Below are positions 39,001-51,000 of a DNA stretch of 64,000 nt, in pieces; within the stretch, counting starts at the first letter, position 1; every line of letters starts with the position of its first letter. The position numbers are program-made. The DNA is from Candidatus Poribacteria bacterium (GTDB taxonomy: Bacteria > Poribacteria > WGA-4E > PCPOR2b): the NCBI GenBank assembly GCA_965116925.1, contig OZ220744.1, positions 6,016,001 through 6,080,000 of the forward strand, in the 5' to 3' direction.

Positions 39001-42000
39001 TGGGGTCTTGTCGTCCTCTGTCGCAATAGGGATGAGGAGGCAATTCAGGTAGGACTATAGTCTATCAAAAAATCGACATGAGATCAAGCCTTTTTTTCGA
39101 TTTTTTACAACATTTTTTTACTTTTCAGAAATATCCCATGTCCTTCAATTTTCGTTCGTCGCGTCGCCAATCTGCTTTGACGGACACGCGCAAATCCAGA
39201 AATACGGTTGTGTCCAAAAACTGCTCGATTTCTGCGCGGGCGAGCTGACCGATCCTTTTGATTGTTTTACCGCCTTTTCCCACTAGGATCCCTTTTTGCG
39301 ATTGTCGTTCGACATAAAGCATCGCACTGATATAGATCTTTCCATTTGGACGTTCCTTGAACTCTTCAACCATGACGCTAGAGGCGTAAGGAATCTCCTG
39401 ACTGGTTCTGAGGAAAATCTTTTCCCGTATTGTTTCCGAGACAAAGAAGCGTTCCGGCAGGTCACTGAGTTGGTCGGGCGGGAAGTAGGGAGGTCCTTCG
39501 GGAAGGTGTTTGAGAATGGACTCGTGCAGTTCAGATACGCCGTTGCCCGTTGTTGCAGAGATTGGGATGAGTTCAAGAAAAGGGAACTTTTCCTGATAGC
39601 TGGCAATAATCGGTAAAAGTGAGGGATTGGGTATGAGGTCAATTTTGTTAATTACGAGTATGACTTGCTGCGCTGCCTTTTTGAATTCAACAAGGATCTT
39701 TTCCTCAATGCCGGAGTTTAGTCGGCTCACATCGATCATATAAAGCACAAGATCTGCGTCTGTGATTGCGGTATATGCAGCTTTGACCATCTGTTCCTGC
39801 AAGCGATATTTGGGGGTAAGCACGCCGGGCGTATCTAGGAAGATAATTTGATGCGAATCCGTTGTGAGAATCCCTGTGATCCGGTTGCGTGTCGTCTGCG
39901 GCTTCGGTGTGACAATTGCGAGCTTCTCCCCCATCAGCGCATTCAGCAGGGTTGATTTGCCGACATTCGGTTCACCGATGATGCTAACGTATCCGGATTT
40001 GAATAGGTCTTGCTCTTGCATTTGCGGGTTCCATAGCGGACTTGATGGCATAAAAAAAGCGATGCTTTGACATCGCCTTTTGGCTGATTCAGATGAAATT
40101 CACTTTGCCACGAATAAGAACGAACGCTTCTCTTCTTGCATTTAGGGAGGGCTCTTATCCCTTCGTGATTCGTGGTGGGATAGGTGGTCGATGTGGTTCT
40201 GGTTTAACTGGCGCATTTCACTTCTAAGGTCACGGATTTCCGCTTGCATATCTGTAAGTCGTTGATTCACTTCAGTAAACCGATGATTCATTTCAGTAAA
40301 CCGATGATTCACTTCCTCGGATTGCTTGTCGATCCGATCTTCTAGCCGTTCGATCGCATGAACGAATGTCTCGCTTTGCTTTTGCAGCTGTTCCGTGTTC
40401 GCTTTCAGTCGCGCTGACACGGCGATGGCTTGTCCTATTATCGTTGCCAATGCTAGTGCTGCCACAATCAGATGTGACGGCGACCATGCTGAAAAGTCCA
40501 TTTCAATCTCCTGTGTTCAAATGGTCATATTATACCCCGGTTGCGAACAAATCCAAAACAGGCTCCTCTTCTGTTTTCTGAATTAGATATTTTCCTGATT
40601 CAATACGGTCGCGTGCAAATTTATAATATGCAGGAACGATCTCAAACCCTATGTAATGTCTTCCCTTCATTTTGCTCACTACAGCAACTTGTCCAGACCC
40701 TAAAAATGGATCTAAAACAACATCCCCTTTTTGGCTGGAATAATCTAGAATTTTCTCAATGAGTTCAGCTGGCAATTTAGTTGGCGTTTTGACTGCACCT
40801 TGCCAATATTCTCTCTTAATTTCCCAGACATCTTCTTTGTCTTTATAGTGTGCAGAGCTACCGTTTTCAGTCTTGGCATCCTTATCAAATCGGCGATAGG
40901 GATAAAACTTCCGCTTCCTATCGTTTTTGCACAAAAAAAGACAGTGATAGTGAGAGGTTACATACTTACGCTTGGTAACGACACCAAACTGATATTTCCA
41001 AATCAGGTGATTAACCGTCGTAAGATTGCATTGATCAATAGCGATTAAAAGGTCTTTTAGGTGATTCCAGCCAGAAAAGATATACATGCTGCCAGAATCT
41101 TTTAACACTCGCGTCGCAGCAGAAAGCCATTCAAGTGTGAATGTGGAATAATCGTCTGCTTCAATCTCATTGTAGCCTTGCAGAACTCTATCCCCTGTCC
41201 GGTTGTAGTTATGTCGAGTGGCTTTGAACTCGATGGCAAAAGGGGGATCCGTTATGATAAGATCCACACACTCATCCGGCATTTCGGACATCAACTTAAT
41301 ACAGTCTCCTTGTCTGATAGTATCAATGTACTCAGGACAATATGTATTTGCTTGATCTTGTGCCATACATCTTCCTTTTAGAAAATGTCCGATAAGCCGT
41401 CTTAACGTTCAATACAAGTCCATCTACCCACCTACGTTTTTTTTTATCTCTGTCTCACTCTCGCCTTAACCGGATGCGCTGCGGTCGTGAAACCGGGCGG
41501 GGTTGTTGGCTTAACCGCTTCAGTAGGTCCTCGACTTCTGCATCGTAAGTGTCGAAGGGATCCTTCATCTCAAAGGGTTCTTCATGCGAAAAATAGATCT
41601 GGTTCCAATCAATGATACACGGCAGGCGGTGTTGGGATAGATAACGCATTACATAGGAGCGGGCTTTTGCCCTTGTATTTTCGGGAGCATTCCGGATAGC
41701 TGCCTCAATCTGTTCGTCCGTCGTAACCCGTCTCACATGTCCTTCGCGCTCAAGTTCGTAAAACAGTCCCTTCTCGCGGTTAAGATGGTGGTACTCAAGA
41801 TCAAGACTCTCGATCCACGGGTCGTCCCACGCCAACCCCTCCTCCTCCATAAAAGCCTCAAGCAGCCACTTCTTCGTTACCCAATCGACGCGATCGATTA
41901 AAAGTTCCGGATCCGCTTCCAAGTCGTCCAAGACCGATTCCCACTCGGTTAGAACCCAATCTGTGTCTTCATCTCTGCCCTTCAGGACTTTCTGTGCGAG

Positions 42001-48000: not shown

Positions 48001-51000
48001 CAATGTCGTCAAATAGTCGGAAATCGTCTTCTGGTATCGTCTCACGGCGCCTTCTATCGTTCTGGTTGCGCATTGAACCCTCCTCAAACAGAATAGTCGG
48101 TCGTATTGGATGGTATTTCAGAATTAATTTCTTTTGCCGTTGGAGAAGCACGGGAAAATGTCCCTAAAAGAACGTCCCCAATATTTGAGAGTATTCAGCT
48201 GCTAACACCTTCTTGAATTAACAGGCTTCGTGAGATTGTAACGGTCATTGGAAAGAAAGTTGCATCAGACCGGCTAGAGCCTGAAGACCCAAAGCAGATG
48301 GAGAAATGGGTGAAAAATGGGAAAGTGCTAGCTGGCAAAAGTATGACATCTATCATATAGCTTGTCGTATAAGTGCATTTGTATTCTATCACATCGGTAG
48401 GCAAACATCAACACAAAAAGTAGCAAATCCTCATGAGAGTATTGCCTAGACATCGGAAATTTCTAACAAAAAAGCTGAATCAACTGTGCATAATTATTGC
48501 CTTCCTCTTCTTATTTTGGTATAATCTGCCTTACAGTTTTCCATCATTAAGAATAGGTCGTTATTAATTCAAACCTACCGCAAAGACACTAAAGTACACG
48601 GAGAAAAGTGATAAAAGTTTTTTCTTTGCGTTCTCCGCGTTAAATGAACCAATAACCACCTATTGTGTTTTCCATCTATAGTGAATTCTAAAAATAAATA
48701 GACACTTTCGCCCCCCATGTTTGGTAGGCGCTGTTTCTAACTGCGCCGATTTGGAGTGTCTCATTAATTCTAAGGTCCACTATAATAAGGATGGGATTCT
48801 ACAAAAGATCGCTATTAAGGATGGAATGATGGAAACGACGGAATACCGGCTTCGGCTAAAAGACCTGCCCGAAGATGAACGACCGCTCGAAAGACTTTAC
48901 AAGTACGGTCCGCAGGCACTTAAAACATCAGAACTAATCGCAATTATTATTCGTACCGGAACGGGCACTGCAACAGTGGTTCAGGTCGCAGAGCAGCTGC
49001 TTCAGAAGTACGATGGCAACTTGAAGCGATTGGCAGATAATAGTGAGATACAGATTGCAGAAGGTATCAAAGGGATGGGCACTGTGAAGGTGGGCCAAAT
49101 CAGGGCAGCCTTTGAGTTAGGGCGGCGGATGGCGGCGTTTCTTGAAGAAAAACCGCAGATCGGTTCTCCCAGCGATGTTGTACATGTTGCGCGAATGGTG
49201 ATGCCTTCGATGCGAGATCTGCAACAGGAAGAGCTACATGTTTTTTGCCTTGACACGAAGAACTATGTGACCAAGCAGCGTCGTATCTTCGAGGGAAGCT
49301 TAAATGCGAGCATCATCCATCCCCGTGAAGTCTTTCGGTTCGCGATAGAGGAGGCGGCGGCATCAATCATATTGGTGCATAACCATCCCTCCGGTGATCC
49401 CGCACCAAGTCCAGAGGACATCCATGCGACAAAGCAATTGGTCGAGGCGGGGAAGTTGCTCCAGATTTCTGTGACGGATCACGTTATTATCGGGGACGGA
49501 TGCTATATCAGCATGAAGGAAGAAGGAATAATTTCGTAACGCTGTATCACAAGCGTCCACAATTTACGATCAAATAGGAGATTTCAATATGTCCGAAGAT
49601 AAAGCGTATAAAGTTCGTGCGATTCACTGTAATCACAAAGCCTCCCCGGAGGAGATCTACGAAAGGCTCAAGACGATTACTGCCCCCCTGACACGTTCAT
49701 GGGAGAAGATCGAAAAAGCCCGCAAAATCGGTATCAAGGTGAACATGCAGATGCCTCCGGATAATATCCGTCGCATTGGAGGACGACGGCAGGAGTTGGT
49801 TGATGACGATGTGCTCCGTGCCTCGCTCCGTCTGTTGCGAGAGCGCAGCGACGCACATATCTTCGTGCTTGATACCAGCATGGCACCGGTGGGACAGCGC
49901 CCGGGCGATGATTTTAATACGCGCTCAATCTTCGAGGAATTCGATATCCCTTATATTGAAGCCGGTGACCCGCCCTTTACACAATACAAGGTGCCCGGTG
50001 GTGGTATAATGTTCTCCGAATATCAGCTTTCTGCCTCTATTGGCGAAGCGGATGCCTTTGTGTCCATCGCTAAGATGAAGAACCACGCCTTTATGGGTAT
50101 CACACTGTGTCTCAAAAATCTTTTCGGTTTGCCGCCGATACAGCCCCACGGGCGGGTGAGAACCTACTTTCATCATGTCATCCGGCTTTCATACGTCCTG
50201 CCTGATCTCGGTCTGATTACCCAACCTTGTCTCAATATCATCGACGGTTTGACGGGACAAGCGAGACGGGAGTGGGGCGGGGACGGGCGTATCTGCGATG
50301 CGCTGATTGCCGGGGACCATGTGATTGCCACGGACGCCTGCGGCAGTTACCTGATGGGCACCGCCCCTCGCCTCGATTGGCCCAATCCGCCTTTCCGCCG
50401 CGATCGAAGTCCGGTCGCAGTGGCTGCAGAGCACGGGTTTGGGACCGTGAATCTGGAGGAGATTGACTTTGACATGGGAGAGCTACAACCGCCCCTCGCC
50501 GAGTTTGACTCAGAGAAGATGGACCCCAGTGAAAAAATCGCTAGCCTGCGTCAAACCGCGTGCCATCAGGCGTTGTTTTATCGAGATAACCAAGAACGCT
50601 TAGTAGACCGTCACGCTGGTTCATTTATCTATCTGCAAGATGGGGAAGTCATCTGGAGTGGTCCGCGCCCGGATCAGGCGGGTGCTGTCCATCAACTCAG
50701 CGGTGAGCGTCCGGATCAGGCGGTGTGGCTCAAACTGGTCGATCCGGAGGAAACAGAGGGTGAACGGATGCGCGTATATGAGCGGATTTTGGCAGCGTAG
50801 GCACTCTTGGTATGTGTGTAGCTCAGCGTGAGTTGGGTTGAACGGTTAAAAGCGAATCTTTATCAAGGACAATAGAACTTTCGCTTTTTAACAGAACCGT
50901 CTTATAGATGAATACAGTGAAACCCAACCTACGGGTTGGGGTAATAGTGGGTACAGGTTGCCTAACCTGTACGGGGAGCGATTTTTGCCAACAAAGTGCG

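Follow-up and report, generated by a model that had tools for sequence, protein, structure and literature searches.

Can a single bacterium maintain two tag-dependent proteasome systems, one built around UBact and one around Pup, and would the two be kept apart? The question is raised by a stretch of 64,000 nucleotides (the window) from a Candidatus Poribacteria bacterium, which carries a UBact operon, and by a Pup-type operon farther along the same contig. Pup and UBact are disordered peptides that are linked via a glutamate side chain by ligases of the glutamine-synthetase fold. UBact-proteasome loci were reportedly first described, in Gram-negative phyla, by Lehmann, Udasin, Livneh and Ciechanover in 2017 (BBRC). 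In PMC8223512, tag-dependent bacterial proteasomes are seen as a largely actinobacterial speciality. We judge it probable that the two complete modules are deep lineages of one machinery and that for the most part they operate side by side, each as a self-contained unit.

The UBact operon

Six adjacent open reading frames, all on the minus strand and with intergenic gaps of -11 to 42 bases, form the UBact operon at positions 41455-48073 of the window, in the order ATPase, Dop-like enzyme, tag, beta subunit, alpha subunit and PafA-like ligase. Open reading frames and family profiles confirm the operon as complete, as the initial annotation had it. The gene order is the same in nine of ten other Poribacteria genomes examined; in the exception, G014, the ATPase and Dop-like genes are located elsewhere. 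Upstream of the ATPase gene lies a weak candidate for a promoter-like site (48383-48411, minus strand; TTGATG-17-TAGAAT, with TG before the second hexamer), such sites being no commoner in the region than by chance (7 found, 8.9 expected).

The first gene (46322-48073, minus strand) encodes an Mpa/ARC-type proteasomal AAA+ ATPase of 583 amino acids, counted from the ATG at 48073. An alternative GTG upstream, at 48151, would yield 609 amino acids; the ATG agrees with the N-termini of the orthologues. The protein matches the profiles AAA (113 bits), Prot_ATP_ID_OB_N (54 bits) and OB_C (44.5 bits), scores 472 bits against TIGR03689, below the cut-off of 504.75, and has the C-terminus ..SSVI. It is followed by a predicted Dop-like deconjugase/deamidase (44789-46309, minus strand; 506 amino acids; PF03136, 572.6 bits), which exceeds the cut-off of TIGR03688 (511.5 against 492.3 bits) and contains an insert of Dop-loop length together with the motif D-H-A-HPEY-S-T-P, read as NDHAHPEYSTP. 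The UBact tag itself (44555-44752, minus strand) has 65 amino acids and a pI of 11.05 and was identified by PF20513 (67.5 bits, cut-off 27.8) and NF033388 (73.6 bits, cut-off 35). Its end, ..RRYRQRTGE, includes the R-[TS]-G-[EQ] expected of UBact (RQRTGE), and the C-terminal half of the tag is almost unvarying from phylum to phylum.

The predicted PafA-like ligase at the other end of the operon (41455-42915, minus strand; 486 amino acids; PF03136, 470.9 bits) is below threshold in both NCBIfam models (TIGR03686, 372 bits; TIGR03688, 355 bits) and matches solved PafA and solved Dop about equally. It has no Dop loop, reads IDMGHLEYATP (D-M-G-HLEY-A-T-P) around the catalytic Asp, and contains ..RADH.., beyond which its divergent alpha-loop shows no match to PafA; the inserted residue of PafA is absent, and the net charge is -34. 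Signature residues were judged against Table 1 of PMC7947786, in which Dop is marked by a loop of ~40 residues, His-Ala after the catalytic Asp and Ser after E-Y, and PafA by the lack of both loop and His, by Ala after E-Y and by a His opening the alpha-loop. The Dop and PafA residues of both modules fit this table.

Between the tag and the ligase lie the genes for the 20S subunits. The beta subunit (43742-44551, minus strand; 269 amino acids; PF00227, 86.3 bits) stays below the cut-off of TIGR03690 (173 against 191.9 bits), and its translation shows a propeptide, a G|TT cleavage site and, numbered from Thr1, Asp17 and Lys33. The alpha subunit (42958-43752, minus strand; 264 amino acids) is divergent and has an acidic insert. 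It scores 76 bits against TIGR03691, below the cut-off, but retains the pocket lysine, the K of ..RKIFEVHDR aligning with ..QKISELYDR of solved PrcA. That it barely passes the Pfam cut-off (PF00227, 23.3 against 22.4 bits), with PrcA as its best solved-structure match at only 40.9 bits, might be taken to mean that the cell has a single degradation pathway, and that the other module, most likely UBact, either tags proteins for purposes other than degradation or is a relic in decay. The ATPase points the same way in lacking the penultimate aromatic residue of known docking motifs. We nevertheless regard this explanation as improbable: the beta subunit keeps Thr1, Asp17 and Lys33, dN/dS lies between 0.05 and 0.09 in every gene of the module, alpha included, 167 of the 176 Poribacteria genomes have the UBact tag, and UBact-type architecture and ATPase tail are kept in at least seven phyla.

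The Pup operon and its genome setting

The second operon, said by the initial annotation to be built around Pup, was found as described, with all six parts, on the plus strand at contig positions 6185666-6192256 (L006 3667-10257), 126 kb from the UBact operon. Its products are an ATPase (607 amino acids), Dop (496), Pup (65), a beta (284) and an alpha subunit (236), and PafA (452). The tag scores 62.6 bits against PF05639 (cut-off 27) and has the G-G-[EQ] ending, as IQRGGE. Dop has the loop and the motif D-H-A-HPEY (P_Dop carries VDHAHPEYCTPEC); PafA has no loop and an inserted residue after the catalytic Asp (P_PafA carries QDIGCHPEYATPEC). The beta subunit also shows G|TT, Asp17 and Lys33, and the alpha subunit matches a solved actinobacterial alpha with 189 bits and retains the aligned pocket lysine. 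The ATPase ends in ..KGGAYL, its penultimate residue being aromatic in 11 of 11 Pup-type ATPases from Poribacteria.

Mixing of contigs from two organisms during assembly or binning could also place two systems in one genome, and CheckM-type contamination is 2.7%. We give this next to no weight, as both operons stand on one contig of 6.47 Mb that makes up the whole genome (99.12% complete), base composition is even throughout the window, and the two operons share a contig in 10 further Poribacteria genomes. The values of 26-42% identity between matching parts, cited earlier against a recent duplication, were reproduced (pairwise: ATPase 39.2%, Dop 42.3%, ligase 40.0%, beta 38.9%, alpha 26.2%). 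The two tags gave no match to each other in a pairwise comparison. The sets are anciently diverged. Such a pair of complete systems on one closed chromosome is thus not a product of recent duplication, nor of faulty binning.

The Pup operon was covered in four metatranscriptome runs from two studies. Depth rose at the start of the operon in three of these (from 2.85 to 100, from 0.11 to 51-375 and from 22 to 75-473), and in the fourth the contig starts already upstream of it (depth 49-82), all depths being taken from assembled contigs, a poor measure to which DNA carry-over may contribute. The sampled words of the UBact operon were recovered in the same four runs at fractions of 0.35-0.76.

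Distribution and selection in Poribacteria

In a full scan of the phylum, the Pup tag was found in 167 of 176 genomes and both tags together in 161. These counts differ slightly from those of the initial annotation, which gave Pup in a sample of 28 of 31 genomes and UBact in 162 of 175 other genomes, where 166 were found here. Both modules are conserved over a whole class, and purifying selection acts on each of the 12 genes (dN/dS 0.02-0.14 against G031). Loss was seen in family f5, where the UBact tag is absent from all three genomes. Only Pup-type ligase genes were present in the two f5 genomes examined for them, and only Pup-type ATPase and beta subunits in all three, with both types recovered in the controls G033 and G016. 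The entire UBact module has thus gone from family f5. In genomes with scattered operons, ligase-family genes number four in each of four f8 genomes and five in one f9 genome.

Signatures of specificity

The two tags carry opposite charges (pI 11.05 for UBact against 4.05 for Pup), and the median net charge of the ligases is -23.5 for the UBact type and +2 for the Pup type. The ATPase tails are system-specific as well: 46 of 46 UBact-type ATPases end in [VI][VI], whereas the Pup type ends in an aromatic residue followed by Leu or Phe, with GQYL in both of the two actinobacterial loci. A role of the GQYL tail in proteasome docking is described in PMC8223512. By sequence, signatures of specificity sit exactly where they would be expected, in the charge of the tag and in the tail with which the ATPase would dock at its C-terminus.

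By homology with the actinobacterial Pup-proteasome, a PafA-like ligase would couple the C-terminal Glu of each tag to substrate lysines, and a Dop-like enzyme would strip the tag off or deamidate a terminal Gln. Pup ends in Gln in 8 of 11 relatives; in this genome it needs no deamidation, because its last residue is Glu. A hexameric ATPase would then grip the tag via its N-terminal helical domain and unfold the substrate into its own 20S core. The choice of tag may be fixed by the oppositely charged helical half, and the pairing of ATPase and 20S core by the module-specific C-terminal tails.

Both tags have a seven-residue C-terminal pattern in common, Y-x-Q-[RK]-x-G-[EQ], so that cross-talk between the systems is possible and the ligase active sites might take either tail. 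This bears on the proposal that the modules are interoperable, enzymes or 20S cores serving both tags at least in part and the duplication providing capacity, backup or differential regulation instead of two distinct codes. The retained pocket lysine in both alpha subunits, the OB and AAA architecture common to both ATPases and the finding of no strict charge-reversal column between the two ligase sets would also fit such sharing. Against it stand the opposite charges of the recognition halves of the tags, ATPase tails that are module-specific and conserved between phyla (46/46 and 2/2), the joint retention or loss of module parts in complete genomes, as in f5 with its missing tag, ligases, ATPase and beta subunit, and the persistence of at least four ligase-family genes (4, 4, 4, 4 and 5) in the f8 and f9 genomes despite their scattered operons. 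We regard interoperability as possible but rather doubtful. The charge of the tags, the tails of the ATPases and the loss of the entire UBact module from one family are circumstantial signs that the modules may instead work separately, in line with the largely parallel operation favoured above.

Ancestry and closest known systems

Pup-type parts cluster with Actinomycetota and Entotheonellia. The UBact-type parts fall among Latescibacterota and Gemmatimonadota; the nearest clusters bear the names Entotheonellia, Ilumatobacteraceae, Latescibacterota and Gemmatimonadota. In the tree of the ligase family, all four groups (UBact- and Pup-type Dop and PafA) received SH-aLRT values of 96-100. The best tree pairs UBact-type Dop with UBact-type PafA (SH-aLRT 91, not starred), and a constraint placing all Dops together, as expected if Dop and PafA go back to a single ancient duplication and are orthologous to their actinobacterial namesakes, costs 14.2 lnL and is not rejected (p-AU 0.154). 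The Pup-type module probably arrived by horizontal transfer, ahead of the radiation of the class. On a bolder reading, which we put forward only tentatively, a basic UBact and an acidic Pup would be two fully insulated degradation codes predating the class radiation, each with its writer, eraser, reader and shredder; the UBact lineage would have undergone its own duplication into ligase and deconjugase, a PafA-type ligase thereby evolving twice from a Dop-like ancestor.

Like other UBact loci, the module in Poribacteria combines the order ATPase, Dop-like, tag, beta, alpha and PafA-like with a basic C-terminal tag half ending in R-[TS]-G-[EQ] and the ATPase tail [VI][VI]; gene order, tag end and tail were observed in loci of Armatimonadota, Abditibacteriota, Bipolaricaulota, Latescibacterota and Gemmatimonadota. 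The UBact-type ATPases of Poribacteria differ from the others in an additional acidic N-terminal stretch. Unlike in Poribacteria, where the module cohabits with a Pup-type one, no second system was found in 46 other UBact-type genomes sampled, which have one ligase-family gene pair each and no Pup. Pup was not found among 168 Latescibacterota, nor UBact among 301 Actinomycetota. Coexistence is not established as unique to Poribacteria, because the sampling left out Nitrospirota, Nitrospinota, Planctomycetota and Entotheonellia.

The second operon corresponds part by part to the actinobacterial Pup-proteasome system (Mpa/ARC, Dop, Pup, PrcB, PrcA, PafA), and actinobacterial loci are 42-57% identical to it. 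Shared features are an acidic Pup ending in Y-I-Q-R-G-G-[EQ], the Dop loop, the additional residue that follows the catalytic Asp of PafA and an ATPase end, G-G-x-[YF]-[LF], resembling GQYL. It differs in its host, a sponge-associated phylum of Gram-negative type, and in having a system of another lineage alongside. Two sets of 20S subunit genes in one bacterium are also a feature of the duplicated 20S operons of Rhodococcus erythropolis, with two alpha and two beta types (PDB name 'proteasome alpha-type subunit 1'). There the sets are closely related paralogues that belong to a single Pup system using one type of tag, whereas the sets in Poribacteria are only 26-39% identical, differ in ancestry and each have their own tag, ligase, deconjugase and ATPase. 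Eukaryotic ubiquitin, SUMO and NEDD8 likewise provide several tags per cell, each served by separate enzymes for conjugation and deconjugation. This is an analogy of function alone, since neither the fold nor the chemistry is related, and to judge from the genes each tag in Poribacteria would also have its own proteasome.

Implications

In the literature searched, which does not include the original UBact paper, we found no report of UBact and Pup coexisting, so that the novelty claimed by the initial annotation holds within that literature; it likewise yielded no laboratory work on any UBact system or on these proteins. In Poribacteria, the two branches together offer a natural 2x2x2 matrix, with the tag, the ligase or ATPase and the 20S core as its dimensions, which could be used to study tag-receptor and activator-core specificity and to find out if UBact signals degradation in the first place. 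The uniform [VI][VI] tail of UBact-type ATPases hints at a docking mode that dispenses with the aromatic residue found next to last in known proteasome activators. The tags may be a source of non-cross-reacting degradation tags for engineering, and existing sponge metaproteomes could tell the tagged protein sets apart, because the tryptic remnants on lysine would differ (G-G-E for Pup, T-G-E for UBact). With two anciently diverged sets that nearly all relatives have kept, these bacteria are a natural case for how small protein tags are distinguished.

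The two operons of this genome

The UBact operon consists of six consecutive open reading frames on the reverse strand of the window (41455-48073), with intergenic gaps of -11 to 42 bases. It begins with a proteasomal AAA+ ATPase, in which Pfam recognizes the AAA and both OB domains (TIGR03689 at 472 bits, just below cut-off), followed by a Dop-type enzyme (TIGR03688, 511.5 against a cut-off of 492.3) and the UBact tag of 65 residues (PF20513, 67.5 bits; NF033388, 73.6). The 20S beta subunit has in translation a propeptide, the G|TT site and, numbered from Thr1, Asp17 and Lys33, while the 20S alpha subunit is very divergent (PF00227, 23.3 against 22.4). 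The last gene encodes a second Pup-ligase-family enzyme, with a PafA score of 372 bits, slightly higher than its Dop score of 355. The operon end at 48073, as placed in the initial annotation, was retained, as the ATG there agrees with the N-termini of orthologues better than the upstream GTG does.

The flanking genes are ordinary, encoding a DNA methylase, Era, a RadC-like JAB protein and a DUF362 protein, and a promoter and terminator scan at the operon gave a number of sites not above chance. The RadC-like JAB-domain gene (48721-49539, forward strand) lies just upstream of, and divergent from, the operon; JAB domains are deubiquitinase-like folds, and RadC is common. In genomes G000 and G031 of the phylum, the tail of the PafA-like ligase is basic and closes with a Glu (..RIRLRRE, window 41455-41480), loosely resembling the end of the UBact tag itself. 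In other genera the tails of this ligase are basic and lack the terminal Glu, and the resemblance may be due to chance.

The genome is a single contig of 6,471,377 bases (completeness 99.12%), in which we identified four Pup-ligase-family genes and one Pup gene (62.6 bits). The Pup operon lies 126 kb away on a stretch designated L006 (3667-10257, forward strand) and encodes, in a single orientation, an ATPase (607 aa), Dop (496 aa), Pup (65 aa, ..ENYIQRGGE), beta (284 aa) and alpha (236 aa) subunits and PafA (452 aa). BLASTP reproduced the between-set identities first reported for this pair, 39% for the ATPases, 42% for Dop, 40% for the ligases, 39% for beta and 26% for alpha; no match was obtained between the two tags, which have pI values of 4.05 (Pup) and 11.05 (UBact). 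A TnpB-like gene (OrfB_IS605 and a Cas12f1-like TNB domain; L006 1214-2347, forward strand) is found 1.3 kb upstream of the Pup operon, and a Cu/Zn superoxide dismutase gene follows it (L006 10391-10978).

Distribution and selection within the phylum

Poribacteria are reportedly counted among the UBact-bearing candidate phyla in the 2017 UBact paper. UBact was found in 167 of the 176 genomes of the phylum and Pup likewise in 167 of 176; comparison of the two lists places both tags together in 161. Three genomes, belonging to families f10 and f11, have neither tag and also no gene of the ligase family. Pup alone is missing in six genomes, which are 73-91% complete and scattered among Pup-bearing relatives. 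UBact alone is also missing in six, three of which make up the entire family f5. A search for ligase genes in two f5 genomes (G004 and G005) yielded only those of the Pup type, and in all three f5 genomes the ATPase and beta subunit are of the Pup type only, with both types present in the controls G033 and G016; the loss in family f5 therefore took in the entire UBact module. G005 carries a third ligase-family gene (locus L011, reverse-strand ORF on contig G005:C195, 86-2072 on the reverse complement), 51% identical to Pup-type PafA, whose open frame runs on upstream into a sigma-factor-like region. Since G-I-G-N-Q-Y-D takes the place of the G-x-E-x-E motif, this paralogue is probably inactive.

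The two operons share one contig in 10 further genomes, most of which keep the gene order. In families f8 and f9 the operons are scattered, and the number of ligase-family genes still does not fall below four, with 4 in each of four f8 genomes and 5 in one f9 genome. In genome G014, a UBact locus without ATPase and Dop nearby and a Pup locus without PafA nearby gave rise to a 'hybrid' reading, which was rejected because all four ligase-family genes occur elsewhere on the chromosome. For all 12 genes, comparison with G031 gave dN/dS of 0.02-0.14 at dS of 0.8-1.5.

Ancestry of each system

A search with UBact-type Dops as query returned 80 loci (L032-L111). Operons with this gene order, whose tags end in ..RYRQR[ST]G[EQ], were identified in Armatimonadota, Abditibacteriota, Bipolaricaulota, Latescibacterota, one Gemmatimonadota MAG and others. 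The nearest UBact-type relatives are in loci labelled Candidatus Poribacteria bacterium; beyond these, the operons of Latescibacterota and Gemmatimonadota are closest (50-64% identity), and among clusters at 50% identity, those nearest to the UBact-type enzymes have named members from the same two groups. Two actinobacterial loci had the Pup set as best match (ATPase 55-57%, Dop 49%, beta 54%, alpha 42% and PafA 52%). The nearest cluster at 50% identity has Entotheonellia as named members in the case of the Pup-type Dop; in that of the Pup-type PafA, these are Ilumatobacteraceae, other Actinomycetota and Moduliflexus.

An IQ-TREE analysis of 46 Dop/PafA rows supported all four enzyme groups at 96-100, and its central branch unexpectedly paired UBact-type Dop with UBact-type PafA, set against Pup-type Dop and PafA (SH-aLRT 91). 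As a lead, the FastTree and IQ-TREE topologies suggest that Dop and PafA may have arisen in two independent duplications, one of them in the UBact lineage; a tree with the orthodox Dop|PafA split loses 14.2 lnL and is not rejected by the AU test (p-AU 0.154).

Coexistence outside the phylum

The check for Pup covered 50 of the 63 loci from the UBact-type Dop search that are not labelled Poribacteria. Pup was present in 4 of the 50 genomes. Two of the four are actinobacteria, and two are genomes already included in the phylum as G029 and G060, which leaves 46 other UBact-type genomes, none of them with Pup. Among 48 genomes, ligase-family matches numbered two in 44 and one in 1, with a third match, a fragment only, in 3; none had four. 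None of 168 genomes in the Latescibacterota phylum yielded Pup, and none of the 301 Actinomycetota sampled gave a UBact match over cut-off; two weak matches fell below it. The survey was drawn from outside Entotheonellia, Nitrospirota, Nitrospinota and Planctomycetota.

RNA libraries

Both operons were represented in metatranscriptome runs, the small-share runs X12-X20 being left out. The share of the UBact operon's sampled words present was 0.76 in two runs of one study and 0.41 and 0.35 in two runs of another, and each of the same four runs covered 30 of 30 bins of the Pup operon. In run X5, the ATPase through beta genes of the Pup operon lie on one contig of 4672 nt at a depth of 100 (2.85 upstream). 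Depth rises from 0.11 upstream to 51-375 in the operon in X8, and from 22 to 75-473 in X9, with the maximum at Pup in both and values of 9.6 and 4.9, respectively, past PafA. In X6, a contig of 5056 nt begins already upstream of the operon at a depth of 49-82 with no clear step. Taken as contig depths, not measured expression levels, these values show that the sequences are present in RNA libraries and that the depth in most runs has the shape of an operon. In the beta-alpha spacer of the Pup operon (L006 8054-8141), the X8 and X9 contigs skip or replace 78-86 bases and those of X5 and X6 break; this probably represents intergenic strain variation.

Signs for and against separate working

The halves of the tags that ligase and ATPase are expected to recognize hardly vary within a type and are opposite in charge between types, and the median net charge of the ligases mirrors that of the tags (Pup type +2, UBact type -23.5). 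In the actinobacterial system, as described in the part of PMC8223512 drawn on here, alpha-ring pockets with a lysine take up the penultimate aromatic residue of the ATPase tail. The tail is GQYL in two of two actinobacterial ATPases, and G-G-x-[YF]-[LF] in 10 of 11 Pup-type ATPases of Poribacteria (S-G-P-Y-L in G014). All 46 UBact-type ATPases, taken from L012-L031 and L032-L111 and from at least seven phyla, end in [VI][VI] (VI, II, VV or IV; 46 of 46 loci; here at window 46322-46340) and have no aromatic residue at the penultimate position, where the GQYL and HbYX docking motifs have one. From its sequence, this aliphatic tail suggests that docking to the 20S core proceeds differently. Both enzyme pairs agree with the signature residues that Table 1 of PMC7947786 gives for Dop and PafA; the UBact-type ligase has a divergent alpha-loop and lacks the inserted residue of PafA.

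Three observations count against strict insulation. The tag ends are alike, both UBact and Pup having Y-x-Q-[RK]-x-G-[EQ]; a lysine aligned to the pocket lysine is present in both alpha subunits; and a charge-reversal scan of the ligase sets gave no strict reversals. Three basic columns conserved in the Pup type are lost in the UBact type, a signal too weak for mapping a binding groove. A complex prediction for two copies of the N-terminal region (residues 14-160) of the UBact-module ATPase with UBact, run without controls, reached a score of 0.28 where the mark was 0.32, and counts neither way. Among 11 Poribacteria examined (L012-L031), Pup ends in Gln in eight and in Glu in three, including this genome, and the last residue of UBact is Glu in 10 of the 11; since Gln ends are mostly those of Pup, deamidation by Dop would be needed mainly on the Pup side.

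Two tagging systems in one phylum

In the parts considered here, Iyer et al. (2008; PMC2588565) and Hecht et al. (2020; PMC7947786) describe the system as sporadic outside actinobacteria, the latter retaining one match per genome, and von Rosen et al. (2021; PMC8223512) describe the proteasome as largely restricted to Actinobacteria; two systems in one genome are not mentioned in these parts of the three papers. No report of UBact and Pup coexistence was found in the literature searched on UBact, the Poribacteria proteasome and pupylation, a search that covered sources other than the UBact paper of 2017 and what PMC7203096 says on UBact.

Among the genomes sampled, the coexistence of UBact and Pup is so far found only in this phylum. 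That the two systems operate in parallel and are largely self-contained is the best reading and one we hold with moderate confidence; they may also be fully insulated, as implied by the two orthogonal pathways of the initial annotation. The coexistence itself, also proposed there, is real, old and selected, and brings together the two known lineages of bacterial tag-and-proteasome systems.
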